A DNA stretch of 64,000 nucleotides from the NCBI GenBank assembly GCA_003450815.1, contig DMES01000002.1, positions 5,591 through 69,590 on the forward strand, in the 5' to 3' direction. The first letter of the stretch is position 1; every line of letters begins with the position of its first letter. The notes under the pieces were generated by a model, which ran no database searches, had not been told where the DNA came from, and saw nothing but the letters and a program-made list of their open reading frames with translations. A program made the translations under genes and the position numbers. Below, one piece after another: positions 4,195-60,226 of this stretch. The stretch comes from Elusimicrobiota bacterium (GTDB lineage: Bacteria; Elusimicrobiota; Elusimicrobia; Elusimicrobiales; UBA9959).

Positions 4195-4366
4195 TAGGCC
4201 CGTGCGAATACCTTCGTTAGAGAGCACGGGTTCCTTTTAGGAGAGGTTCAGTGAGCGTTTCCGGCTTAATGCCGGAATAGCGAACGACGAAGGGGAGCTT
4301 AGCTCCCCTCGTGGAGCACCGGGCCGCGATACCTTTTAAGGCCCGGCGGTTAATCCGCCCCGAACG

Positions 4367-4390
4367 CTGTGCAGTGCGGGCGGGGTGCGA
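4367..4390 (+). repeat. 24-nt perfect direct repeat, copy 2
   Basis: Identical to 4171-4194. Confidence 0.9.
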
Positions 4391-4395
4391 CAGAG

Positions 4396-4445
4396 GCCCA
4401 GTTGGCGCAGCGGGTAGTGCCCTGGGAAAGTATGACACAGTCGGC
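4396..4445 (+). pseudogene. tRNA-Val-derived remnant (5' acceptor and D arm only)
   Basis: gcccagttggcgcagcgggtagtgc (4396-4420) matches the first 24 nt of the intact tRNA at 4480 with one indel and one mismatch. The tgggaaag that follows matches the 3' anticodon stem. No anticodon loop or T arm can be formed. Confidence 0.5.
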
Positions 4446-4479
4446 ATAGCTATTTTCCGGAGCCCGCAAAGCGGTTTTT

Positions 4480-4554
4480 GCCCAGTTGGCGCAGCGGTAG
4501 CGCGTTCCCTTGACATGGGAAAGGTCACAGGTTCGATCCCTGTACTGGGCACCA
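4480..4554 (+). tRNA. tRNA-Val (anticodon GAC), CCA encoded
   Basis: Manual cloverleaf: acceptor GCCCAGT/ACTGGGC, D arm GCGC-AGCGGTA-GCGC, anticodon arm TTCCC-TTGACAT-GGGAA, variable AGGTC, T arm ACAGG-TTCGATC-CCTGT, then A-CCA. Confidence 0.9.
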
Positions 4555-4560
4555 TTTTTA

Positions 4561-4586
4561 GTTCCTGCTCTAACAGCAGCAGGAAC
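4561..4586 (+). other. Perfect 9-bp hairpin after the tRNA (processing or terminator element)
   Basis: gttcctgct-ctaacagc-agcaggaac. No clear T run follows. Confidence 0.4.
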
Positions 4587-4589
4587 AAT

Positions 4590-4633
4590 GATTACACAGA
4601 TTACCGGGGAAGATTACACAGGTTAAGATGTAG
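4590..4633. repeat. Degenerate direct copy of the GATTACAC repeat
   Basis: gattacacagattaccggggaagattacacaggttaagatgtag has the same two GATTACAC words 22-23 nt apart as 3588-3632. It faces the inverted copy at 4647-4708. Confidence 0.6.
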
Positions 4634-4646
4634 TAGTTTGGTTTTA

Positions 4647-4708
4647 CAGCTTTTGTTTCAGAAATCAAGATGCAATCTGTGTAATCGTCGTGTTAAATCC
4701 GTGTAATC
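4647..4708. repeat. Right (inverted) copy of the GATTACAC-rich repeat
   Basis: See 3588-3649. It ends 11 nt before the thrS ATG. Confidence 0.85.
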
Positions 4709-4719
4709 ATAATTCTTTT

Positions 4720-8313: not shown

Positions 8314-9810
8314 ATGACCAATAATATTTTCGGCGTAATACTGGCCGGCGGCGCGGGAACCCGCCTTTGGCCGCTTAGCCGAAAGCTTCTGCCAAAACAA
8401 TTTTTGCGCCTTGGAAAAGAAGACTCCCTTTTTGAGAAAACAGTATCAAGAATAACCCCTTTGACCGGTATAAATAATATAGTAGTGGTAACAAATAAAC
8501 TGCACGCCTTCGGCTCGGGCTACCATCAGCTGAAAAAACTGCGAATGCTGATAGAGCCGGAAGCCAGGAACACAGCTCCCGCCATAGGTCTCGCCTGCCT
8601 GTATCTGCTTAAAATATGCGGCAATGACCCAGTTGCCGTGGTGCTTCCCTCAGACCATATGATAGCCGACCGAAAGGCTTTTCTTAAAGTTTTGTCTGTG
8701 GCGGTCAAAGAAGCAGAAAAGGGGAAAATCGTTACGCTCGGCATAACGCCCGATTCCCCTGAAACCGGTTATGGATACATTAAGAGGGGGAAACCGATAA
8801 CAGTCACAAGTCACAAGTCACAAGTCACAAGTCACAAGCCAGAAGTCACAGGTCACAGGTCACAGGTTGTAAACGGGGATTTCTGCGGAGAGGTTTTTAG
8901 TGTTGATAAATTCGTGGAAAAGCCGGATTTTGAGACGGCCCGTAAATATCTGGAAAACGGCGGTTATTACTGGAACGCGGGGATGTTTGTCTTTAAGGCT
9001 TCGGTTATGCTTGAGGAATTTAAAAAATATCTGCCCGCGGCTTATAACCTGCTTGAAAAAATAAATAAAGAGGCTTTTGAAGGTGAAAAAGTAAATTATG
9101 ACGGCCTTGCCACCTTGTTCTCAAAAATGCCGGCCATTTCCATAGACTACGCGGTAATGGAGAAGTCCGATCGGGTTTGCGTTATCCCTTCAAAATTCGG
9201 CTGGAGCGATGTTGGCAGCTGGCATTATTTCTATAGCGCGCTTCCCAAGGACGGGAACGGTAATGTTAAATTAGGAGACGTCCTGGCCCTTGACGCGCGG
9301 GACAACCTGCTCTATTCCGGCAGCAGGCTTGTAACGGCCATAGGTGTTAAGAACCTGGCCATTATAGAAACCAGCGATGCTATTCTGGTTTCGGAGATCA
9401 ACCACTCGCAGAAAGTTAAAAAGATCGTAGATGAGCTAAAAAAACAGAACAGGCGCGAGCTGGACGAGCATATAACCGTGGAGCGCCCCTGGGGTTCTTA
9501 CACGGTGCTTGACGACTTGCCCAACTACAAAGTTAAAAAACTTAAAATTTATCCGGGTCACAAAATAAGCTATCAATACCACAACCGTCGTTCAGAGCAT
9601 TGGTTTGTTGTCAAGGGTTCGGCTGAGGTTACCTTGGACGGGAAAAAGATGAAAATACGGAAAAACCGTCATGTGGACATACCGCTTAAAGCCAGACATA
9701 TGCTCTTTAATCCGGGCCCGGCGGACCTGGAGATAATAGAGGTCCAGTCGGGCGCTTATTTCGGCGAAGACGATATTATCCGTTTAAACGATTTCTACGG
9801 CAGGAAGTAG
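8314..9810 (+). CDS. manC: Mannose-1-phosphate guanylyltransferase / mannose-6-phosphate isomerase (bifunctional type), carrying a repeat-encoded insertion
   Basis: ILAGGAGTRLWPLSR, ETGYGYI, EKPD...YWNAGMFVF and a C-terminal cupin (WGSYTVL..., HRRSEHWFVV). Confidence 0.85.
   Translation: MTNNIFGVILAGGAGTRLWPLSRKLLPKQFLRLGKEDSLFEKTVSRITPLTGINNIVVVTNKLHAFGSGYHQLKKLRMLIEPEARNTAPAIGLACLYLLKICGNDPVAVVLPSDHMIADRKAFLKVLSVAVKEAEKGKIVTLGITPDSPETGYGYIKRGKPITVTSHKSQVTSHKPEVTGHRSQVVNGDFCGEVFSVDKFVEKPDFETARKYLENGGYYWNAGMFVFKASVMLEEFKKYLPAAYNLLEKINKEAFEGEKVNYDGLATLFSKMPAISIDYAVMEKSDRVCVIPSKFGWSDVGSWHYFYSALPKDGNGNVKLGDVLALDARDNLLYSGSRLVTAIGVKNLAIIETSDAILVSEINHSQKVKKIVDELKKQNRRELDEHITVERPWGSYTVLDDLPNYKVKKLKIYPGHKISYQYHNRRSEHWFVVKGSAEVTLDGKKMKIRKNRHVDIPLKARHMLFNPGPADLEIIEVQSGAYFGEDDIIRLNDFYGRK
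8803..8872 (+). repeat. Heptanucleotide tandem repeat inside manC
   Basis: GTCACAA x5 perfect (8803-8837), then gccagaa, GTCACAG x3 and gttgtaa. It encodes ...VTSHKSQVTSHKPEVTGHRSQVV... Confidence 0.9.
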
Positions 9811-9931
9811 AGAAAGATGCGTCGAGGCAAGGATGTAAAGACGCAAGGAGGGGTGAAAGAAAATATTCTCAAGACTGCTTTGCATTTTAAGTCTAAGTTG
9901 CTTTGCGTCTAAATTGCTATGCATCTAAAGG
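9811..9931. repeat. Two-armed 8-nt-unit repeat element (GCATAGCA/ATTTAGAG family) between manC and gmd
   Basis: The forward arm 9819-9858 reads gcgtcgag gcaaggat gtaaagac gcaaggag. The reverse arm 9875-9930 reads ctgctttg cattttaa gtctaagt tgctttgc gtctaaat tgctatgc atctaaag. Confidence 0.75.
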
Positions 9932-12068: not shown

Positions 12069-12851
12069 ATGAAAGTCGTAATTCTGGCGGGCGGTTTGGG
12101 TACCAGGCTTTCGGAAGAAACGGACCTGAAACCCAAACCTATGGTTGAAATAGGCCAGCACCCGATACTTTGGCACATAATGAAACTGTATTCCAGTTAC
12201 GGCTTCAACGATTTTGTGCTTTGTCTTGGCTACAAAGGGTATCTGCTGAAAGAATATTTCGCCAACTACTTCCTGCACCAGGCCGATGTTACCATAGATT
12301 TGAGAAATAATAAGTTGAAAGTGCATCACAGGAAGGCAGAGCCATGGAAAGTGACCCTTGTGGATACCGGCCTTAACACTATGACCGGAGGGCGCATAAA
12401 AAGGATAGCAAAGTACGTAGGCAACGAAACCTTCATGCTAACTTATGGCGATGGTGTGGCCGATGTAAACATGAAAAAGCTGGTGGAATTTCACAAAAAG
12501 CACAAAAGGAAGGCCACTATAACCGCAGTGCAGCCGATCGGCAGGTTTGGCGCCATTGACATAGGCCAGGCGGGAGAGGCCGTGTCTTTCCAGGAAAAAC
12601 CGCTGGGCGACGGCGCCTGGATAAACGGCGGTTTTTTTGTGCTTGAGCCGGAAGTGTTCAAATATATACGCGACGACGCTTCAATCTGGGAGCGTCAGCC
12701 GCTTGAAACCCTGACCAGAGAAAAACAGCTTTCTGTCTACAGGCATAAAGGCTTTTGGAAATGCATGGATACGCTTCGAGATAAGCAGGAGTTGGAAAAT
12801 TTTTGGCGCTCCGGAAATGCCCCATGGAAAGTCTGGAAGGAAGGGCAATGA
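12069..12851 (+). CDS. rfbF: Glucose-1-phosphate cytidylyltransferase
   Basis: MKVVILAGGLGTRLSEETDLKPKPMVEIG..ILWHIMK. GGAGG RBS before ATG 12069. Confidence 0.85.
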   Translation: MKVVILAGGLGTRLSEETDLKPKPMVEIGQHPILWHIMKLYSSYGFNDFVLCLGYKGYLLKEYFANYFLHQADVTIDLRNNKLKVHHRKAEPWKVTLVDTGLNTMTGGRIKRIAKYVGNETFMLTYGDGVADVNMKKLVEFHKKHKRKATITAVQPIGRFGAIDIGQAGEAVSFQEKPLGDGAWINGGFFVLEPEVFKYIRDDASIWERQPLETLTREKQLSVYRHKGFWKCMDTLRDKQELENFWRSGNAPWKVWKEGQ

Positions 12852-13954
12852 AAGACAGGTTTTGGGCCGGGAAAAAGGTGTTCCTTACGGGCAATACAGG
12901 CTTTAAGGGAAGCTGGTTGTCGCTGTGGCTAAATAGTATGGGCGCCAAAGTTTATGGCTATGCCCTGAAGCCGCCTACCAGGCCCAGCCTTTTTGATCTT
13001 TGTTCCATCGGCAAAATAACAAACACAACCATCGCCGATATCCGCGACGCTGGCCGCCTTAAAAAGGCGCTTAAAACGGCCTTGCCCGATATAGTTATCC
13101 ATATGGCGGCTCAGCCGCTGGTACGAGAATCTTACCGTGCGCCGGCGGAAACCTACGATACCAACGTGATGGGGACTGTGAACCTGTTGGAGGCTGTGCG
13201 CGCCTGCGGCAGAGTGAGAGCGGTGGTAAATGTCACCACCGACAAGTGCTATGAGAACAAGGAACGTCCGATTGCCTATCGCGAAGGCGAGCCCCTTGGT
13301 GGTTATGACCCGTATTCCTCCAGCAAGGCCTGCTCCGAGCTGGTCACTTCCGCCTACCGCAACTCATTTTTCAACCCCATGTGCTATTCTCTTAACTCTA
13401 AACTCTTAACTCCCAACTCACAACTTTCGTCTCACCATGTGGCTTTAGCTTCGGCCCGCGCGGGCAATGTGATAGGAGGGGGAGACTGGGCGGACGACAG
13501 GCTTATACCGGATATAATACGGGCTGCTTTGAGCGGCAAAAAAGTCCTGATAAGGAACCCCCGCGCAATAAGGCCATGGCAGCATGTGCTTGAGCCTTTG
13601 AGCGGATACCTGCTTCTGGCGCAGAAACTTTACCGGAAGGGCCCCGCCTATGCCCAGGCCTGGAATTTCGGCCCGGTGGAGTCAGACGCTAAAGATGTGG
13701 AATGGATAGTAAAACGCATGTTCCAAAAGTGGAGTGTCGCTCCCGGCTATGTTTTGGACTCATCCCGCCATCCGCATGAGGCCCATTACCTTAAACTGGA
13801 TTCTTCAAAGGCGCGGCGCGCGCTGCTCTGGCGTCCGCGCTGGAATATCGGCCAGGCGATAGACCGGGTTATTGATTGGACAGAAGCCTATACGCGCAAA
13901 GAAGACATGCGAGGGGTCTGTTTAAGGCAGATAGAAGGATATGAAGAGGCATAG
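12848..13954 (+). CDS. rfbG: CDP-glucose 4,6-dehydratase, carrying a repeat-encoded insertion
   Basis: KKVFLTGNTGFKGSWLSLWL, YDPYSSSKACSELV and RAGNVIGGGDW. ATG 12848 overlaps the rfbF stop (ATGA). Confidence 0.85.
   Translation: MKDRFWAGKKVFLTGNTGFKGSWLSLWLNSMGAKVYGYALKPPTRPSLFDLCSIGKITNTTIADIRDAGRLKKALKTALPDIVIHMAAQPLVRESYRAPAETYDTNVMGTVNLLEAVRACGRVRAVVNVTTDKCYENKERPIAYREGEPLGGYDPYSSSKACSELVTSAYRNSFFNPMCYSLNSKLLTPNSQLSSHHVALASARAGNVIGGGDWADDRLIPDIIRAALSGKKVLIRNPRAIRPWQHVLEPLSGYLLLAQKLYRKGPAYAQAWNFGPVESDAKDVEWIVKRMFQKWSVAPGYVLDSSRHPHEAHYLKLDSSKARRALLWRPRWNIGQAIDRVIDWTEAYTRKEDMRGVCLRQIEGYEEA
13389..13437 (+). repeat. Heptamer-periodic tract inside rfbG
   Basis: ctcttaa ctctaaa ctcttaa ctcccaa ctcacaa ctttcgt ctcacca encodes ...SLNSKLLTPNSQLSSHH... 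Confidence 0.7.
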
Positions 13955-14031
13955 CAGTTTAGATGTAAAGCAATTTAGCGGCAGGGTCATTTAGAGGCAC
14001 AGCAGTTTGGAGGCACGAAGGCGTAGAAGAC
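13944..14031. repeat. 8-nt-unit repeat array (GCATAGCA/ATTTAGAG family) overlapping the rfbG stop
   Basis: From 13949 there are 10 consecutive units: gcatagca gtttagat gtaaagca atttagcg gcagggtc atttagag gcacagca gtttggag gcacgaag gcgtagaa. 13944-13970 is the inverted partner of 14459-14485. Confidence 0.8.
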
Positions 14032-14091
14032 ATATCTTTTAGCGGTTAAATTTCTGGACTACCGAATTGTTAAGTGTTGAGCGGAGGGGGT

Positions 14092-14451
14092 ATGGCTGGA
14101 TTATATAAAGGTCTTAAAGTTTGGGAGAACAGTGTAAACCTCATAAAAAATATATATTCGGTAGCGGAAAAGCTGCCTAAAAGCGAGGAATATAACCTCA
14201 AGCAGCAATTAAAAAGGGCGGTAGTTTCGGTAGCGTTAAACATAGCAGAAGGAAAAGGGCGAAAATCAGCGAAAGAATTTTCCAATTTTCTAAATATATC
14301 GTTCGGATCTTTATGTGAAGTGGAAGCTATATTAACTTTGTGCCAAGAATTGAACTATCTTTCCAATCTGGAAGATACTTTCTCGCGCATAGAAGTGTTA
14401 TTAAAAATGCTCTCTTCTTTAAAAAATAGTTTGGCTGAGAAACAGTCTTAA
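14092..14451 (+). CDS. Four-helix-bundle protein (family formerly called 23S rRNA intervening-sequence protein)
   Basis: LKVWENSVNL...LPKSEEYNLKQQLKRAVVSVALNIAEGKGRKSAKEFSNFLNISFGSLCEVE is the characteristic pattern. GGAGGGGG RBS before ATG 14092. Confidence 0.75.
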   Translation: MAGLYKGLKVWENSVNLIKNIYSVAEKLPKSEEYNLKQQLKRAVVSVALNIAEGKGRKSAKEFSNFLNISFGSLCEVEAILTLCQELNYLSNLEDTFSRIEVLLKMLSSLKNSLAEKQS

Positions 14452-14456
14452 ATGTT

Positions 14457-14495
14457 GTCTTTACATCTAAATTGCTTTGCCTCTTTGCATCTATC
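14457..14495. repeat. Reverse-orientation 8-nt-unit repeat (same family)
   Basis: The sequence is gtctttacatctaaattgctttgcctctttgcatctatc. 14459-14485 is the reverse complement of 13944-13970 with 25/27 identity. Confidence 0.8.
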
Positions 14496-14501
14496 ACTAT
14501 C

Positions 14502-15245
14502 ATGGAAATAATCTTCTTAGGCACCAATGGCTGGTACGACACTTCCACCGGCAATACCGTCTGCGCCCTTGTAAAGACAAAGCGCTTTGATATTGTGTTG
14601 GACGCGGGTAACGGTCTGACCAAACTTGACCGCTATTGCGACGGTTCCAAACCGGTCTATCTTTTCCTCAGCCATTTCCACCTGGACCACATAATAGGTC
14701 TGCACGCCCTGTTGAAATTCAGGTTTCGCAAAGGGCTCACTATATTCGCGCAAAAGGGCGCGCGACGCGTATTGAAAACATTCGTAAACGCCCCTTTTAC
14801 CATGCCTCTGGATAAACTGCCTTATTCCGTAAAAATAGTTGAACTTCCCGACGAAGCCCCAAAGTTGCCTTTTAAGGCTGAAAGTCTGCCGCTTGAGCAT
14901 TCCGACCCGGTGCTTGGCTTGCGTCTGCGACTTGACGGTAAAACCATTGTCTATTGCACCGATACAGGCCATTGTGCAAACGCTCTTAAGCTGGCGAAAA
15001 GGGCGGATCTGCTTATCTCCGAATGCTCCCATCTTTCGGGCGAGGAGAACCCCGGTTGGCCTCATTTTAATCCAGAAACGGCCGCCAGACTGGCGCTTGT
15101 GGCGGGGGTAAAGAATCTCGTGCTTACTCATTTCGCTGCGGACAGATATTCTACCATGCGCCGCAGGACCGCGGCGTTGCGCGTGGCTCGTAGGATATTT
15201 CCCGGCTCCGCCGCCGCAAAAGACGGAATGCGGATGAGACTGTAG
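14502..15245 (+). CDS. MBL-fold metallo-hydrolase (RNase Z / ElaC-like short form)
   Basis: HxHxDH motif (LSHFHLDHIIGL), later D/H ligands (CTDTGH, LTHF) and N-terminal IIFLGTNG. Confidence 0.7.
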   Translation: MEIIFLGTNGWYDTSTGNTVCALVKTKRFDIVLDAGNGLTKLDRYCDGSKPVYLFLSHFHLDHIIGLHALLKFRFRKGLTIFAQKGARRVLKTFVNAPFTMPLDKLPYSVKIVELPDEAPKLPFKAESLPLEHSDPVLGLRLRLDGKTIVYCTDTGHCANALKLAKRADLLISECSHLSGEENPGWPHFNPETAARLALVAGVKNLVLTHFAADRYSTMRRRTAALRVARRIFPGSAAAKDGMRMRL

Positions 15246-15265
15246 GAATCCGTTACTATGCAGGT

Positions 15266-15368
15266 AGACAGAATGCAGAAGTCAGAATACAGAATAGCCG
15301 CTCTCAATAAGCTTCCGATAGCTTTTGCCGCTTTCTGGCTTCTGAATTCTGACTCCTGACTTCCTGAA
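15266..15368. repeat. Two-armed heptamer repeat element
   Basis: The left arm reads cagaatg cagaagt cagaata cagaata. The right arm reads ttctggc ttctgaa ttctgac tcctgac, so the arms are complementary. Confidence 0.75.
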
Positions 15369-15387
15369 TAACCATACAAGGACCCCA

Positions 15388-16758
15388 ATGACCCGTGAAG
15401 AAATTCTAAACGCTGTAAGGGCCTACCATTCGGTTGCTTTTTCCGTTAAGCCTTTCAATAGGGAAAAGGACACTGTTCGCTACGCCGGAAGGGTGTTTGA
15501 CGAAAAAGAACTTGTGGCTCTGGTGGACTCGTCGCTTGATTTTTGGCTGACAGAAGGACGTTACGCCGAGAGTTTCGCCGAAAAGATCTCGGATTTTCTT
15601 GAAGTTGAAAATGTAATCCTGACAAATTCCGGCTCGTCCGCCAACCTGCTCGCGCTTTCGGCTCTGACATCAAAAAAACTAGGCAAAAAAAGACTTGTGC
15701 CCGGCGATGAGGTTATCACTGTCGCCGCGGGATTTCCTGCGACGGTGACTCCGATTCTGCAGAACGGTCTGATTCCGGTTTTTGTGGATGTGGAAATACC
15801 CACCTACAATGTAAATATTGAAGCCCTTAAAAAAGCTGTTTCACCTAAAACCCGCGCTGTCTTTCTAGCTCATACACTCGGCAACCCTTTTAATGTTGAA
15901 GAGGTAATAAAAATCGTTAAAGAACATGACCTGTGGCTTATAGAGGACAACTGCGACGCGCTCGGCAGCAGATATAGATGCGTAGAGGCGCAGCAATTTG
16001 GAGGCATAGGAACGTCCCCTCCGCGCCTCCACGCCTCCACGCCTCCACGCTTCCAGTACACCGGCACATTCGGGCATATCGCCACAATTTCTTTTTATCC
16101 AGCCCACCATATTACCACTGGTGAAGGCGGTGCCGTGGTGACCAATAACGAGCAATTGTCCCAGATCATACGCTCGTTCAGGGATTGGGGACGCGACTGC
16201 TACTGCGCCGGCGGGGAAAACAATACCTGCGGCAAGCGTTTCTCGCAGCAATTCGGTACGCTTCCCCCCGGATACGACCATAAATATGTTTATTCCGAGC
16301 TGGGCTACAACCTGAAAATGACCGATATGCAGGCGGCTATAGGTTCCGCACAAATGGACAAGCTTGAAATGTTCGGCGAGAAAAGACGCGGGAATTTCAA
16401 GCGTTACCAGAAGATGTTTTCCGCATACTCGCGCTTCCTTCTCCTTCCGGAGGCTACTCCTGGCTCGGATCCCTCCTGGTTCACCTATATTGTGTCCGTC
16501 AGGGACAACGCCCCCTTCAGTCGCAATGACCTGGTGACATTCCTGAACGAGCGCCGGATAGAAACAAGAAACATCTTCGCCGGCAATATGATTCGCCAGC
16601 CGGCTTTTATTGGCAGGCCCTGCCGTGTGCATGGGGAACTGAGCGTTACCGACTTCATCATGAACAATACTTTTTTCCTTGGAACTTATCCCGGTATGAC
16701 CGGCGATATGTTCGCCTATGTTGAAGACTGTGTCGCCGAATTTATGGGACGGTTTTAA
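15388..16758 (+). CDS. rfbH: CDP-4-dehydro-6-deoxyglucose 3-dehydrase (E1, PMP/[2Fe-2S] enzyme), carrying a repeat-encoded insertion
   Basis: GDEVITVAAGFPATVTPILQNGLIPVFVDV, FYPAHHITTGEGG (His in place of the aminotransferase Lys), DWGRDCYCAGGENNTCGKRF (Cys cluster) and SDPSWF. Confidence 0.85.
   Translation: MTREEILNAVRAYHSVAFSVKPFNREKDTVRYAGRVFDEKELVALVDSSLDFWLTEGRYAESFAEKISDFLEVENVILTNSGSSANLLALSALTSKKLGKKRLVPGDEVITVAAGFPATVTPILQNGLIPVFVDVEIPTYNVNIEALKKAVSPKTRAVFLAHTLGNPFNVEEVIKIVKEHDLWLIEDNCDALGSRYRCVEAQQFGGIGTSPPRLHASTPPRFQYTGTFGHIATISFYPAHHITTGEGGAVVTNNEQLSQIIRSFRDWGRDCYCAGGENNTCGKRFSQQFGTLPPGYDHKYVYSELGYNLKMTDMQAAIGSAQMDKLEMFGEKRRGNFKRYQKMFSAYSRFLLLPEATPGSDPSWFTYIVSVRDNAPFSRNDLVTFLNERRIETRNIFAGNMIRQPAFIGRPCRVHGELSVTDFIMNNTFFLGTYPGMTGDMFAYVEDCVAEFMGRF
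15971..16056 (+). repeat. 8-nt-unit palindromic repeat inserted in frame in rfbH
   Basis: The first arm gatatagat gcgtagag gcgcagca atttggag gcatagga belongs to the intergenic family. The second arm tccgcgcc tccacgcc tccacgcc tccacgct is largely complementary. It encodes RCVEAQQFGGIGTSPPRLHASTPPRFQ. Confidence 0.8.
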
Positions 16759-16842
16759 AGGCATAGATGCGTAGAGGCATAGCAGTTTAGAGGCATGGAG
16801 GCATAGCAATTTAGATGCGTAGAGGCGTAGCAATTTAGAGGT
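16759..16842. repeat. 8-nt-unit repeat array (10 units) after rfbH
   Basis: From 16761 the units are gcatagat gcgtagag gcatagca gtttagag gcatggag gcatagca atttagat gcgtagag gcgtagca atttagag. Confidence 0.85.
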
Positions 16843-16850
16843 GTTCTAAT

Positions 16851-17540
16851 ATGGCTATTGTCAAGAAGTACAGATCCGAGGTCGTCGCCGTTGAAAATCC
16901 TGTCTCCGACATCAGGACCGTTACCCTGCGGCCTCTTGAGAAGGCTTACAAGTACAATCCCGGCCAGTTCCTTCACCTGGCGCTTGATGAATTTGACCCG
17001 GCCAGACCATGGCCCGAATCGCGCTGCTTTTCCATGCAGAGCTCTCCGGATCAGGAGACGATTAAAATAACCTTCGCGGAAAAGGGGAAATTCACCGCGC
17101 GCATGGCGCGCGAACTCGCTCCGGGAAAAGTTATTTATGTCAAACTGCCCTACGGGGATCTGTTTTCAATAGCGCATAACACGCAAAAAACCGTCTTTGT
17201 AGCGGGTGGGACCGGTATTACTCCTTTTCTTTCGCTGTTTACCTCTCCGGAATTCGCTGCATATCAAAATCCCAGTCTTTATTTCGGGCTGCGGAGTCTA
17301 TCGCATCACCTTTATGCGGCCGACCTGGAAAAAGCCCTGGGTGTCAATCCCTCTTTTTCCGTCAAGCTGCAGAATGAGGAAAAAGACGGACGGCTTGATA
17401 TTCAGAAGATCTTCGGCGAAAATGGCCCCTCCGCCGTTTATTTCATTTCGGGGCCTCCTGTCATGATTAAAAGTTTTAAATCATTCCTGGCCTCCAACGG
17501 CGTCCCGCCTGAAAACATCAGAACGGACGATTGGGAATAG
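16851..17540 (+). CDS. FNR-family FAD/NAD(P)H oxidoreductase; candidate E3 reductase partner of RfbH but without a [2Fe-2S] ferredoxin domain
   Basis: RCFSMQS (RxYS-type flavin motif) and VFVAGGTGITPFLS (NAD(P)H-binding motif). It is 229 aa and has no N- or C-terminal Cys-rich ferredoxin module. Confidence 0.6.
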   Translation: MAIVKKYRSEVVAVENPVSDIRTVTLRPLEKAYKYNPGQFLHLALDEFDPARPWPESRCFSMQSSPDQETIKITFAEKGKFTARMARELAPGKVIYVKLPYGDLFSIAHNTQKTVFVAGGTGITPFLSLFTSPEFAAYQNPSLYFGLRSLSHHLYAADLEKALGVNPSFSVKLQNEEKDGRLDIQKIFGENGPSAVYFISGPPVMIKSFKSFLASNGVPPENIRTDDWE

Positions 17541-17555
17541 TATTGCCGGCAACAC

Positions 17556-17650
17556 TGTCCCCCTTGCCCGCTTAATCCCGCATCATTCCCGCCTGTGGCG
17601 GGAAGTAAGCTTTACCCCTTCAGCGGCTTCCACGCGGATGGCGGTGGGGA
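17556..17650. repeat. Looser two-armed repeat / hairpin region
   Basis: cccgc recurs 3 times at 10-11 nt spacing, facing gcgg(g) 4 times. The central perfect hairpin is ttcccgcc-tgt-ggcgggaa. Confidence 0.45.
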
Positions 17651-17738
17651 GTCAGTTTCAGCCGATTTGGACCGCCTCCTAAATGGTAAAATGTAATTAT
17701 CCCGGGAACTATGCAATTGCCGGTCTAGCGGAGGAAAA

Positions 17739-19265
17739 ATGGGGAAGAATATTTTTGACAAATTGTTCGTGCTTGAGATGGCAAATAACCATATGGGTGA
17801 TGTGGAGCACGGTATAAACATCGTCAGGCAGTTCGGAAAAGTATGCCGTAAATTTGATTTCCAGTTCGCCTTCAAATTTCAGTACAGGCAGCTTGACACA
17901 TTTATTCACCCCGTCTATAAAGGCAGGAAAGATATCAAGTACGTGGCCAGGTTCGAAGAGACCAGATTATCAGAACAGCAATTTCTTGAGATCAAGAAAG
18001 AGATGGACGCCAACGGGTTTATGGCCGTTTGCACTCCCTTTGACGAACCCTCGGTTGACCTTGTTGAAAAGCACGGTTACGACATAATAAAGGTTGCCAG
18101 TTGCTCGTTTACCGACTGGCCGCTTCTGGAAAGGGTGGCGGCTACAGATAAACCTGTCATACTATCAACCGCCGGCGCTCAATTGCATGATATAGACAAC
18201 GTGATGGCCTTTATGGAACATAGAAAAAAGACCTTCGCTCTGATGCATTGTGTGGGCGAATATCCCACCGCCAAAGAGCATTATGAGCTTAACCAGATAG
18301 ATTTTTTTCGGAAAAGATACCCCGAAGCCGTGATCGGCTACTCAACACATGAAGATCCGGATAATTACGCGGCTGTGCAGATAGCTATAGGGAAGGGCGC
18401 ATCTATCCTTGAACGTCATGTGGGCCTTAAAACGGAAAAGTATGATGTGAATCAATATTCATCCAGACCGGATCAGGCTGAGAAGTGGCTCTCATCCGCA
18501 CGGGACGCATTTACAATGTGTGGTGTCAGCGGTATACGACGCGACATAACCGGGAAAGAAGCGGATGACCTCAAGGGCCTTCAGCGGGGCGTATTCGCCA
18601 GTACGGATATAAGGCCCGGAGACAGAATAACCTCTTCCAATGTCTTTTATGCCATCCCGAACCTTGCCGGGCAGGTGCTCACAAACGATCTTTCAAAATA
18701 CACACTCTTCACGGCGAAGACGCATGTCCCGGTCGGCAAGCCTGTAATGTCCGGTGACGTTGAGTGCAAAAACATACGCGGAAAAGTTTTTGAAATAGTG
18801 GCGAAGCTCCGCGATATCGTACTGGAAAGCAGGGTGGCGCTGCCGCCCAAAATTGAACTGGAACTGTCGCATCAGTACGGGCTTGAGAAAATAGACCGGT
18901 TCGGCGCGAATATAATAAACTGCATCAACAGGGAATATTGCAAAAAGATAATAATCATGCTTCCAGGGCAGGAGAATCCTTCGCATTCCCATAAGAAAAA
19001 AGAGGAAACCTTTCAGATCCTGCATGGCAGCCTTATTCTGAATATTGACGGCGTGGAAACAGAGCACAAGCACGGTGAAATAGTGGTGGTGGAGAGAGGC
19101 GTAAAGCACAGCTTCAGGTCCGATTCCGGGGCTATCTTCGAAGAGGTCTCCACCACGCATTATAAAGACGATTCGTATTACGACGACGTTCAGATAATGG
19201 AGAACAAGAACAGGAAGACTGAAATAACTTTCTGGTCCGACTGGTTCCTGAAGCCGGTTAAATGA
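17739..19265 (+). CDS. NeuB-family (sialic-acid-synthase-like) aldolase with SAF domain and C-terminal cupin domain
   Basis: FVLEMANNHMGDVEHG, KFQ, IIKVASCSFTDWPLLE, KPVILSTAG, LMHCVGEYP and STHEDPD..ILERHVGL. A SAF-like segment follows, then the cupin HSHKKKEETFQILHG...GVKHSF. Confidence 0.6.
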   Translation: MGKNIFDKLFVLEMANNHMGDVEHGINIVRQFGKVCRKFDFQFAFKFQYRQLDTFIHPVYKGRKDIKYVARFEETRLSEQQFLEIKKEMDANGFMAVCTPFDEPSVDLVEKHGYDIIKVASCSFTDWPLLERVAATDKPVILSTAGAQLHDIDNVMAFMEHRKKTFALMHCVGEYPTAKEHYELNQIDFFRKRYPEAVIGYSTHEDPDNYAAVQIAIGKGASILERHVGLKTEKYDVNQYSSRPDQAEKWLSSARDAFTMCGVSGIRRDITGKEADDLKGLQRGVFASTDIRPGDRITSSNVFYAIPNLAGQVLTNDLSKYTLFTAKTHVPVGKPVMSGDVECKNIRGKVFEIVAKLRDIVLESRVALPPKIELELSHQYGLEKIDRFGANIINCINREYCKKIIIMLPGQENPSHSHKKKEETFQILHGSLILNIDGVETEHKHGEIVVVERGVKHSFRSDSGAIFEEVSTTHYKDDSYYDDVQIMENKNRKTEITFWSDWFLKPVK

Positions 19266-19855
19266 AACCCGTCAGGACCATCGTATGGGATGTGGATGAC
19301 ACGCTTAATGATCTAATGCGCGTTTGGCTGGATGAATGGTTCCTGCCGCGCAATATTCAAGTTAAAGCGCGGTATATGGATATTAAAGCCAATCCTCCGC
19401 ATAAAATACTAGGCATAAATCTTGAGGACTATCTCAGTTCTTATGACAAATTCAGGCTTTCCGGCAGTTATGCCCAAATGCCTCCGGCCGGCGCGGCGCT
19501 TCGCTGGTTTAAGGCTGAAGGTCATAACTACAGGCATATAGCTCTTACCGCCGTACCGCTTTGCGCGGCGCATGAATCCGCAGGATGGGTTTTCAGGCAT
19601 TTCGGGCGCTGGATAAGAACATTTCATGTGGTGCCGTCTCCTAGGAAAAGCGCCCCTGCGCCTCTTTACGAAGCAGAGAAAGCTGATTTTATAAAGCGGC
19701 TGGACCGTTGCGACTTCTTTGTGGATGACAGCCGGCGCAATCTTGCCCCCGTCGCGCGGCTCGGAGTTAAATGTGTGCTGGTTCCAAAGCCCTGGAACGG
19801 GGCAAAAGGCACCCTTTCAGAAGCGCTTGGTAAAATCAGGGGAATGAGGCTATGA
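19262..19855 (+). CDS. HAD-superfamily phosphatase-like protein
   Basis: DxDxT motif (VWDVDDTLND) near the N-terminus and DD in FFVDDS near the C-terminus. ATGA overlap with the upstream gene. Confidence 0.5.
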   Translation: MKPVRTIVWDVDDTLNDLMRVWLDEWFLPRNIQVKARYMDIKANPPHKILGINLEDYLSSYDKFRLSGSYAQMPPAGAALRWFKAEGHNYRHIALTAVPLCAAHESAGWVFRHFGRWIRTFHVVPSPRKSAPAPLYEAEKADFIKRLDRCDFFVDDSRRNLAPVARLGVKCVLVPKPWNGAKGTLSEALGKIRGMRL

Positions 19856-58775: not shown

Positions 58776-60188
58776 ATGTTTGTTTTCAGATGGCGCAGGC
58801 TGTTTCTTTTTTTGGGCGACGCAGTATTGTTTTATGCGGCTTTGGCGGCCGCTCTTGTTGTGCGCCACTTTGGCCCGATTCCCTTTGATTTTTTTATTCA
58901 GCACATTAAGGTGTTTTCAGTTTTTTTGCCGGTCTGGGCCGGAATTTTTTACGTTATCGGTTTTTATGACATACGCCGTATAAATAAGCTTGTAAATCTT
59001 ATAAATTCCGCCCTTATAGCTTTCGCGGTTAATCTTGCCGCGGCCTCCGCTTTGTTTTACGCTTTTTATCTGCAACTCGGTCTTACGCCCAAAACCCATC
59101 TTTTCCTGACATTAAGCTTCCTGCATGTTTTTGCCGTAATCTGGCGCCGTATCTGGACCAGATTTTTTCTTTCAAAGCTGCTTGTGCAGAGGGTTTCTTT
59201 TTTGGGGACCAATTCCCTGCTTGAGGAAATCTGCAAAGATCTGCAAAAAAATCCGCACCTGGGTTTTGTTGTTACTCCGCTGCCGGACCTGAAGGCTAAA
59301 GACGCGCAAAGCGAAGCTTACTGGCGGCCGGACGGCAGAAGGGGCGGGGAACTTGCGCAAAAAATAGATCTGCTGGTGGTTGACGCTGATGATGCGGAGA
59401 AAAACCCCATGGTTGAAAGCCTGCTGCTGTCGACCGCCGTAATGGAAGAGATTCCTATAATCACCCATCTGGATTTTTATGAGGATCTTTACGGCAAGAT
59501 ACCCCCTGAGTATGCCGCCAAACCCAACTGGCTTTTAAGCAATGTGCTGCATAAAAATAACGCGCTGTACGCAGTAATCAAGCGCGGAATGGATATTGTC
59601 GCCGCTTCTTTCGTGTTGCTGCTTACTCTGCCTCTTCTGGCGGCGGTTTACTGCGCGCTGAAAATTTCCGGCATGGGCGGGATCCCGGTTTTCTTTTTTC
59701 AAAAGCGCGTGGGTTACCTGGGCAGGCGGTTCATTATATGGAAATTTAGGACCATGGTGCAGGGGGCCGACAAGGCCGGACCTCTTTACCGGGCATCCGC
59801 CGGCGACGACCGCGTAACACGTCTGGGCCGTTTTTTGCGCCGGACACGCCTGGATGAATTGCCGCAGTTGTGGAATGTCCTTAAAGGGGAGATGTCGGTT
59901 GTTGGGCCGCGGCCTGAATGGATACGCGAGGTGCGGATACTTGAACGCAGTGTGCCGCATTATCATCTGCGACACCTGGTTAAGCCTGGTGTCACCGGTT
60001 GGGCGCAAATACATCTGCAGGCAACCTCAAGCGAATTGGAATCCCTTGAAAAACTGCATTATGACCTCTACTATGTCAAGAACCTTTCGCTGGCGCTGGA
60101 TATAGGTATCATACTGCGCACCTTCCGCAGGGTTTTTCAGAAAGATGCTTCCTTTGCGGCAAGAGAAAAGCTGAAGGCTGAAGGCTGA
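58776..60188 (+). CDS. Polyprenyl-phosphate phosphoglycosyl transferase (WbaP-type initiating enzyme)
   Basis: N-terminal TM bundle and the C-terminal bacterial sugar transferase domain (KRGMDIVAA..., [50 protein letters not shown]). Confidence 0.85.
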
Positions 60189-60226
60189 AGGCTGAAGGCT
60201 GAAGGCTGAAGGCTGAAGGCTGAAGG
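60171..60226 (+). repeat. Perfect heptanucleotide tandem repeat (CTGAAGG)x8 spanning the stop codon
   Basis: 56 nt with no mismatch. The last residues ...LKAEG and the TGA stop (60186-60188) are encoded by the repeat. Confidence 0.95.

Follow-up and report, generated by a model that had tools for sequence, protein, structure and literature searches.

An in-frame hairpin insert in the E1 dehydrase gene rfbH of a groundwater Elusimicrobia bacterium and its relation to an intergenic 8-nt repeat family

An in-frame insert in a complete E1 dehydrase

In the 64-kb stretch of contig DMES01000002.1 analysed here (hereafter the window), which belongs to an uncultured groundwater Elusimicrobia bacterium and is mostly occupied by a large surface-polysaccharide cluster according to Pfam scans, the gene rfbH carries an in-frame segment of 27 codons that is predicted to fold into a long hairpin. 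The account that we hold to be probable is that a dispersed family of intergenic hairpins gave rise to a copy in rfbH, at the turn of a surface beta-hairpin that comes after the first Fe-S cysteine and before the catalytic histidine, that the right arm of this copy was amplified locally and that selection maintained the open frame. The left arm would derive from the dispersed family, being most like array D, 750 nt downstream, and the right arm would have been amplified on the spot as a tandem array complementary to the left one. Purifying selection would have kept only the in-frame open version, the loop tolerating the extra residues, with a disordered surface loop and a still-functional enzyme as the outcome. 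The gene, the insert and the catalytic landmarks around it are as follows.

15388-16758, + strand: rfbH, complete open reading frame (ORF) of 456 aa for E1 (CDP-6-deoxy-L-threo-D-glycero-4-hexulose-3-dehydrase)
15952-15954, + strand: Cys189 (Cys193 of E1), 7 residues before the insert; with C271, C273 and C281 (16198-16230) it has the E1 [2Fe-2S] motif spacing
15976-16056, + strand: in-frame insert of 27 codons, R197 to Q223, in place of the KGK of insert-free orthologues; net +72 nt
16105-16110, + strand: His240-His241; H240 is the catalytic His220 of E1, in place of the pyridoxal phosphate (PLP) lysine, and the lysine of 3BB8 (H220K) aligns to H240

The ORF encodes a complete, full-length E1 dehydrase (RfbH; DdhC/AscC class). 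Its product combines the DegT/DnrJ/EryC1 fold (PF01041, E=1.2e-87) with close similarity over its full length to solved E1 (3BCX, E=1.6e-153), and carries both the histidine that stands for the PLP-binding lysine and the four cysteines of the [2Fe-2S] cluster. In E1, four cysteines form the [2Fe-2S] motif and the catalytic histidine replaces the PLP lysine (PMC8987622). Residues C189, C271, C273 and C281 are all present in the window protein, invariant or nearly so in the alignment, and H240/H241 are in place, as had been claimed in an earlier note on this DNA, which described the frame as kept and the E1 hallmarks as intact. The insert ends 16 residues ahead of H240, in agreement with the distance of about 15 residues given there, and makes the first spacer of the cysteine motif 24 residues longer (81 instead of 57). 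The motif is reportedly C-X57-C-X-C-X7-C, a description said to go back to Agnihotri and colleagues in 2004, which agrees with the 3BCX numbering.

Around the insert, RfbH reads ...CDALGSRY-RCVEAQQFGGIGTSPPRLHASTPPRFQ-YTGTFGHIATISFYPAHH..., the 81 nt of the insert adding, on balance, 24 aa (72 nt) relative to orthologues with KGK. The 27 or so extra residues of the earlier note are correct as a count of codons but slightly high as a gain, since KGK is replaced. The gap between CDALG and GTFG, which the note had put at about 8 residues in homologues, is exactly 8 residues in 107 of 109 aligned homologues (7 if counted from CDALGS), and the same 7-residue gap was found in 60 of 65 parsable metagenomic loci, excluding the window copies and locus L003. 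Typical homologues have RYKGKYT between CDALGS and GTFG, where the window has 31 residues; when compared to solved E1 (3BCX), 28 query residues (197-224) are opposite 4. Orthologues with KGK at the insert site are 84-89% identical to the window RfbH with the insert masked. The insert was missing from every E1 homologue examined except one probable sister lineage, L003, which carries an unrelated sequence at the same codon. In a metagenome scan for further rfbH alleles, at least two close relatives were recovered, both insert-free, and no same-species insert-free allele or tract-length variant was present among the matches listed.

The exact protein is on record at NCBI ('MAG TPA: lipopolysaccharide biosynthesis protein RfbH [Elusimicrobia bacterium]', where MAG is a metagenome-assembled genome). 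Identical RfbH proteins are encoded on 4 contigs, all four assemblies having the same length, and the two of the four records that were read, from JGI and ENA, are identical to window positions 12388-19758. An assembly artefact, which together with the translational bypassing discussed below we find scarcely credible, was therefore rejected on three grounds: the same protein on 4 contigs, the identity of the two records read, and a second sample in which this codon carries an insert of the same architecture.

The left arm and an intergenic 8-nt repeat family

The insert can be divided into two arms, the first of which had been assigned in the earlier note to a family of 8-nt units found between genes. 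All sequence elements quoted there for both arms are indeed in the DNA. The left arm and the family arrays map as follows.

15972-16004, + strand: left arm, copy from the 8-nt-unit family of the intergenic arrays, with 30 of 33 nt identical to 16809-16841
16759-16841, + strand: array D, intergenic, periods 8/16/24, between rfbH and a reductase gene; relatives lack it, the two genes overlapping there
13945-14030, + strand: array B, family array that overlaps rfbG and supplies its stop codon
14455-14495, - strand: array E, family copy between a PF05635 gene and a metallo-beta-lactamase (MBL)-fold gene
9885-9930, - strand: array A, family copy upstream of a GDP-mannose dehydratase gene

The local alignment of the left arm to array D (16809-16841) reaches a score of 51, as compared to 36 for the best of 2000 dinucleotide shuffles and to 33 for the best of about 3000 other chunks of the window, and an exact 16-mer of this arm, ATAGATGCGTAGAGGC, recurs at 16763-16778. 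Family arms are built of 8-nt units of the GCRTAGMR and ATTTAGAG types, and a 20-nt family consensus (up to 2 mismatches) has 6 matches in the window for 0.01 expected, one of them within the rfbH insert. The segment is thus restricted in its distribution among E1 homologues and resembles the arrays beyond chance in its left arm, which is the opposite of what the earlier note had named as grounds for abandoning its claim.

These similarities bear on the very unlikely alternative that the segment arose wholly in place, by slippage or duplication of native loop codons and without any contribution of the intergenic family. The right arm is indeed a purely local amplification (see below), the native TAT AGG GGG of the insert-free relative L005 resembles a family unit, and the first units of the L003 insert (GAAGGTT) resemble native AAGGGG. 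However, 33 nt that are 91% identical to array D, together with an exact 16-mer present at two array positions, cannot be derived from 9 native nucleotides.

The distribution of the family was examined by scanning the 20-nt pattern against one genome per species. Five matches were obtained, three in GWA2_51_34 and one in CG08_land_51_18, which are Elusimicrobia MAGs of similar G+C, the fifth being an isolated match in a Clostridiaceae MAG; viral contigs, scanned as well, gave no family matches. At three unrelated Elusimicrobia loci (L085, L086 and L089), the family occurs as intergenic hairpins in which a loop separates a forward arm from a reverse arm, the one in L085 standing after a 1387-aa ORF, and a further locus, L088, has a forward-only array. 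The rfbH insert shares the forward arm/loop/reverse arm architecture of these three hairpins, and the description of the insert in the earlier note as an intergenic-type palindromic repeat inserted in frame is borne out by these related MAGs. Family copies are absent from the rfb loci of the insert-free relatives L004, L005, L006 and L091. In these relatives the rfb operons are compact, their genes overlapping or abutting (as rfbG and rfbH do in L004 and L091), so that the junction arrays of the window and the segment in rfbH are additions.

The arrays also touch neighbouring genes. The rfbG-rfbH interval of the window holds a PF05635 gene (14074-14451) followed by the MBL-fold gene (14502-15245; weak Apyc1-like match), and array B in forward and array E in reverse orientation flank the former, a '23S rRNA intervening sequence protein' (IVP) gene, as inverted repeats. 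The idea that the rfbH hairpin could be a miniature derivative of an IVP cassette was dropped as a general explanation when tblastn revealed no other IVP gene beside family arrays in the fetched loci. Array B gives RfbG its last residues, the C-terminus reading ..EGYEEA* where an orthologue has ..EYAENTKGI*, and the repeat has thus remodelled the end of rfbG. Array D closes with a unit ending in AGAGG, and the reductase ATG (16851) follows about 10 nt further downstream. Forward arrays contain TAG in shifting frames as well as GGAGG/AGAGG motifs, and could, although this is only an idea, act between genes as modules combining stops in all frames with a Shine-Dalgarno sequence.

The right arm and the predicted hairpin

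The second arm differs from the first in its origin, and both arms together are predicted to form a hairpin.

16018-16055, + strand: right arm, (CCTCCACG)x4.8 tandem array with 93% matches, reverse-complementary to units of the GCGTGGAG type; forms pairs with the left arm
15977-16053, + strand: predicted hairpin, 5' side 15977-16011 and 3' side 16020-16053, 22 Watson-Crick pairs

Three of the CCTCCACG copies are perfect. Aligned alone to the intergenic arrays, the right arm scores 21 for a background of 24, and its 8-mer array occurs nowhere else in the window. Being no closer to the arrays than background and unique in the window, it is attributed to local amplification of a reverse-oriented GCGTGGAG-type unit. 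The earlier proposal that the second arm is largely the complement of the first was therefore right as to pairing, whereas the arm is a local tandem amplification and not a copy of the dispersed family.

The predicted hairpin has a free energy of -35.1 kcal/mol on the sense strand (z -3.6 to -4.8) and of -49.0 kcal/mol on the antisense strand. Folded singly, the arms are not palindromic (z -0.07 for the left and -1.14 for the right arm), nor are arrays B and D (-0.3 and -0.9). In the inserts of both the window and L003, every stem position that is not a Watson-Crick pair is A.C on the sense strand and hence G.U on the antisense strand, and the hairpin gains 11-14 kcal/mol in stability on the antisense strand (-49.0 versus -35.1 in the window, -47.9 versus -37.1 in L003). 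This asymmetry could reflect selection against an over-stable mRNA hairpin, a function of the other strand, or a single mismatch copied along with the repeated unit. No Rfam match with E<=1 was obtained between 13800 and 17000, and the segment was not assigned to an intron or a known structured RNA.

Reading frame and protein structure

One codon of the left arm bears on the reading frame.

15991-15993, + strand: codon Gln202 (CAG), where the array D family consensus has TAG; array D sequence swapped in puts a stop in frame at residue 202

Only one of the three sense frames of the insert is open, and in the L003 insert only one of six, which is the one in use. Three positions of the left arm differ from those of array D: 15991 T>C, which converts the would-be in-frame TAG into CAG (Gln202), 15974 T>A, which keeps the invariant Tyr196 (TAT and not TTT), and 16000 A>G, which changes AGA into GGA. 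Two of these three differences fit coding needs, namely the removal of the stop and the retention of Tyr196. In the account that we favour, the insert would be translated, the ribosome reading through it, and the insert-derived peptide expected from such read-through includes CVEAQQFGGIGTSPPR.

The structural mapping suggested in the earlier note was carried out with an AlphaFold model (114-sequence alignment, mean pLDDT 84), which superimposes on 3BCX with a TM score of 0.93. Strands 195-198 and 221-224 form a beta-hairpin in this model, and the insert is a low-confidence excursion (pLDDT ~42) from the tip of that beta-hairpin. As modelled, the insert is a disordered 27-residue surface loop on an otherwise normal E1, and the enzyme carrying it would still be active.

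We also considered whether ribosomes might bypass the insert in a programmed manner, from one flanking Tyr codon to the other (TAT...TAC), as they do in gene 60 of phage T4 or the mitochondrial 'byp' elements, a possibility that we rate, jointly with the assembly artefact, as scarcely credible. In both lineages the insert lies between matching Tyr codons, which also enclose a stable hairpin. Nevertheless, both inserts are multiples of 3 and stop-free in the used frame only, the family TAG has been changed to CAG, which would be needless in a bypassed segment, no stop follows the take-off codon, and skipping would delete the beta-hairpin turn. The programmed bypass class (gene 60 / byp) was accordingly rejected for a segment that has matched Tyr codons but is open, a multiple of 3 and repaired in its stop. 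An intein was also rejected, the insert being far too small and having no splicing residues.

A sister lineage with an unrelated hairpin at the same codon

The one other examined E1 homologue with such a segment, L003 (P0002; JGI 3300015370), lies on a 2710-nt contig from a different sample. Its protein is 86% identical to the window RfbH, it is the sister of the window rfbH in 144 of 200 bootstraps (insert masked), and both rfbH genes have an MBL-fold gene upstream and a ...GRF C-terminus, which makes L003 a probable sister lineage on sequence grounds. The L003 insert, 33 codons long (1621-1719) and located at the same codon of rfbH, follows the same design with unrelated units, which include GGTTTGAAGG/CCCTCAAA: the left arm consists of heterogeneous 8-mers (GAAGGTT-type) and the right arm of four tandem TCAAACCC. 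Its hairpin is predicted at -37 to -39 kcal/mol (z -5.1 to -5.6). Both inserts start with Arg and finish with TTYCAG (Phe-Gln), the peptide being otherwise not conserved between the window and L003. No convincing second copy of the L003 units was detected elsewhere on its 2.7-kb contig. The inserts of the window and of L003 go back either to separate insertions into a permissive loop or to one ancestral insert with arms that keep being renewed by amplification.

Several more distant homologues from other metagenomes have inserts of their own at the same turn after CDALGS: L042 (+13), L053 (+16), L055 (+19), L076 (+31) and L084 (+4). That of L076 is an unrelated GC-rich palindrome (CCCCCTCTCCCC...GGGGAGAGGGGG) with a predicted energy of -47 kcal/mol, and that of L053 a weak hairpin; those of L042 and L055 form no hairpin, and that of L084 (+4 aa) is too short to fold. 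Since five distant homologues carry other inserts there, this RfbH loop is a recurrent and permissive insertion hot spot.

The sister lineage raises the question of whether the hairpin itself has been selected, as a nucleic-acid element in the coding sequence of which the protein loop is a tolerated by-product. This alternative, which is compatible with an insertional origin, we regard as unlikely. It draws on the fact that the window and L003, although probable sisters, both have long hairpins (z -4.8 and -5.6; ~30-bp stem) of the same architecture with unrelated units. The two genes share only 55% identity at fourfold-degenerate sites (neutral sites ~45% diverged), which is near saturation, so that an inherited neutral hairpin should have decayed, and the peptide is unconserved apart from its ends. 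The A.C sense/G.U antisense pattern common to both inserts, with its better antisense folding, points in the same direction. On the other hand, the near-perfect tandem right arms indicate recent amplification, which yields hairpins without selection, and independent insertion at a hot-spot loop (5/65 distant homologues) explains the sister case equally well. Furthermore, the mismatches are not independent, being repeated along with the unit, there is no terminator-like T-run in addition to the lack of an Rfam match, and the insert-free relatives do without the hairpin. Such a hairpin might conceivably, at rather low odds, serve RNase III or the degradosome as an entry site for RNA processing, pause or attenuate translation, act as a structure or regulatory site on the antisense strand, or be an on/off switch of O-antigen dideoxyhexose synthesis by 8-nt slippage, its two arms being renewed in any of these roles by concerted evolution.

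Origin of the insert

A number of observations weigh against the entry of a family copy into the rfbH turn followed by local amplification, the account proposed at the outset. No transposase or RAYT (a tyrosine transposase of the kind linked to repetitive extragenic palindromes, REPs), PF01797-type included, was found among the 57 ORFs of the window by Pfam scans. No target-site duplication, terminal inverted repeat or defined element ends were found for the insert; a target-site duplication cannot be claimed because the flanking TAT and TAC are native Tyr codons that are present in insert-free orthologues. The right arm, as judged by its alignment score, is not a family copy. A search for the insert peptide in annotated proteins returned two tiny hypothetical ORFs and no other annotated protein with the insert, and, unlike what is seen for Rickettsia palindromic elements (RPEs), no invasion of many genes was observed. 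Lastly, a hairpin just as good but unrelated in sequence occupies this codon in the sister lineage, which would not be predicted for a purely neutral passenger. With a loop that is a general hot spot and a sister hairpin of different sequence, the history must be more complicated than one recent hop.

One of the returns of the peptide search, L090 (316-375), is a plain (CCTCCACG)x8 array within a 67-aa hypothetical ORF on an unrelated GC-rich metagenomic contig. That it shares the 8-mer of the rfbH right arm is probably a coincidence and uninformative.

As to the route of insertion, an ATAG shared at the junction is compatible with microhomology copying, by recombination or template switching, from a nearby array; the copy may possibly have been made in this way, or by some transposase. 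The earlier note had spoken of a mobile or expanding repeat and concluded that the family is or was active. As no transposase, terminal inverted repeat or target-site duplication was found, 'mobile' could equally stand for a copy made from array D by recombination or template switching. The insert would be neutral or selfish rather than useful.

Comparison with known repeat systems

RPEs are palindromic repeats that occur in frame in enzyme genes, are translated and are also found between genes (Ogata et al. 2000, as far as summarised in PMC10969869). The rfbH insert resembles them in being in frame and hairpin-forming, in occupying a structurally permissive site while leaving the catalytic residues in place, and in belonging to a family that is also intergenic. 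It differs in size (81 nt versus ~100-150 bp for RPEs) and in being made of 8-nt tandem units, where RPEs have a conserved consensus that encodes a conserved peptide. Furthermore, RPEs are found in Rickettsiales, whereas the host of the rfbH repeat is a free-living groundwater Elusimicrobia bacterium. The insert was not placed within the RPE family, a judgement based on a pattern found in Elusimicrobia plus one isolated match and on an unconserved peptide rather than on direct alignment to the RPE consensus. The likeness to RPEs put forward in the earlier note consequently holds for the way in which the insert works, but not for its sequence family, host phylum or architecture. The rfbH family has one coding copy among its 6 in 64 kb, the inserts in rfbG and manC (see below) being made of different short units.

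A second class to be compared is that of REPs, among them those tagged with GTAG or CGTC, and REPINs (PMC3337134). REPs found within genes occur mostly as dimers or groups, which encode 20-30 aa (Di Nocera et al. 2013, PMC3733652). The rfbH family is likewise mostly intergenic between co-directional genes, with inverted pairs that fold into a larger hairpin (L085, L086, L089 and the rfbH insert), the insert falls in the 20-30 aa size range, and GTAG occurs within the units. However, a REP unit is a 20-40-bp imperfect palindrome, whereas single arms of the rfbH family are not palindromes (z ~0) but arrays of 8-nt units in variable number; GTAG is internal and not a terminal tag beside the stem, and no RAYT (Y1 transposase) was found in the 64 kb. 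A miniature inverted-repeat transposable element (MITE), which would be derived from an insertion sequence (IS) and bounded by terminal inverted repeats and a target-site duplication, was rejected, the flanking TAT/TAC being native and no IS being present in the window.

The short unit length is also reminiscent of the heptamers of cyanobacterial short tandemly repeated repetitive (STRR) sequences, which Mazel and colleagues reportedly described in 1990 as lineage-specific, intergenic tandem arrays. Both systems have 7-8-nt tandem units at gene junctions, and the window additionally contains (AGTCACA)x9, (GCTGAAG)x8 and hairpins with heptamer units. STRRs are not known as hairpins with inverted arms or as in-frame enzyme inserts, and they belong to a different phylum.

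We conclude that the rfbH insert works like RPEs and intragenic REP dimers while being a member of neither group, and that its repeat type and phylum are new for in-frame palindromic inserts in enzyme genes. Selfish or structured repeats residing in enzyme genes have been known chiefly from the RPEs of Rickettsia and from a few proteobacteria rich in REPs; the insert extends their occurrence to free-living groundwater Elusimicrobia and adds a different kind of repeat, in which the arms of the hairpin are arrays of 8-nt units. A single loop of E1/RfbH, in the first spacer of the unusual [2Fe-2S] motif, accepts 4 to 31 extra residues in at least 7 independent metagenomic lineages; such a permissive loop is of use for enzyme engineering and also for annotators, who might flag genes of this kind as frameshifted or chimeric. 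The unrelated hairpin of L003 provides a small testable case for distinguishing intragenic hairpins kept by selection from ongoing repeat turnover. If the hairpin were functional, the finding would be considerably more interesting, as a nucleic-acid element embedded in the coding sequence of an enzyme.

Other short-unit repeats in the window

Two neighbouring genes of the same cluster carry in-frame inserts made of short units as well. In rfbG (ORF 12848-13954), an insert at 13380-13426 adds 13 aa (SLNSKLLTPNSQL region) and is composed of degenerate 7-nt units (CTCTTAA/CTCTAAA/CTCCCAA/CTCACAA); it is missing from the orthologues L004 and L091 and from the solved CDP-glucose 4,6-dehydratases 1WVG and 1RKX. 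In a manC-like ORF (8314-9810), an insert of about 25-29 aa at 8800-8886 includes (AGTCACA)x9, that is 63 nt (8802-8864) with 5 perfect copies, and is missing from the ManC proteins of L004 and L091 and from the solved 2X5S. Judging from the sequence, the genome is rich in repeats with 7-9-nt units, a few of which have lodged in frame within enzymes.

Simple-sequence contingency loci are known in the lipopolysaccharide genes of Haemophilus, Neisseria and Campylobacter, and the 8-nt tract of rfbH and the 7-nt tracts of manC and rfbG could be loci of this type, in which the gain or loss of units would phase-vary the synthesis of dideoxyhexose or O-antigen. We consider this alternative, which would likewise be compatible with an insertional origin, quite improbable. 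As in contingency loci, units that are not multiples of three (8 nt x4.8 in rfbH) are found in a surface-polysaccharide gene, and indeed inside three such genes within 8 kb, with 3 perfect CCTCCACG copies in rfbH and 5 perfect AGTCACA in manC, and a slip of one unit either way would frameshift and truncate E1 at residues 242-253 and ManC at residues 183-197. Nevertheless, the tracts are short and partly imperfect, that of rfbG being degenerate, the rfbH tract is part of a hairpin derived from an intergenic repeat, its length does not vary across the 4 contigs carrying rfbH, and the repeat families are mostly intergenic, so that the coding copies look incidental.

Hairpins and arrays of short units were also observed outside the genes discussed so far. 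The interval between the MBL-fold gene and rfbH contains a hairpin (15260-15365, -39 kcal/mol, z -4.1) with 7-nt-unit arms (GTCAGAA-type versus TTCTGAC-type), which has arms of short tandem units like the rfbH insert but belongs to a different unit family. Between a tRNA gene (4480-4551) and the gene for threonyl-tRNA synthetase there is a long hairpin (4583-4715, -44.6 kcal/mol, z -4.9) whose arms contain GATTACACA-type units; the ORF listed at 4311-4706 is probably a spurious one. Finally, a perfect (GCTGAAG)x8 array (60170-60226) runs across the stop codon of a sugar-transferase ORF (58776-60188, PF02397) just upstream of an O-antigen ligase-like gene, and a change in unit number would alter the C-terminus of the sugar transferase.

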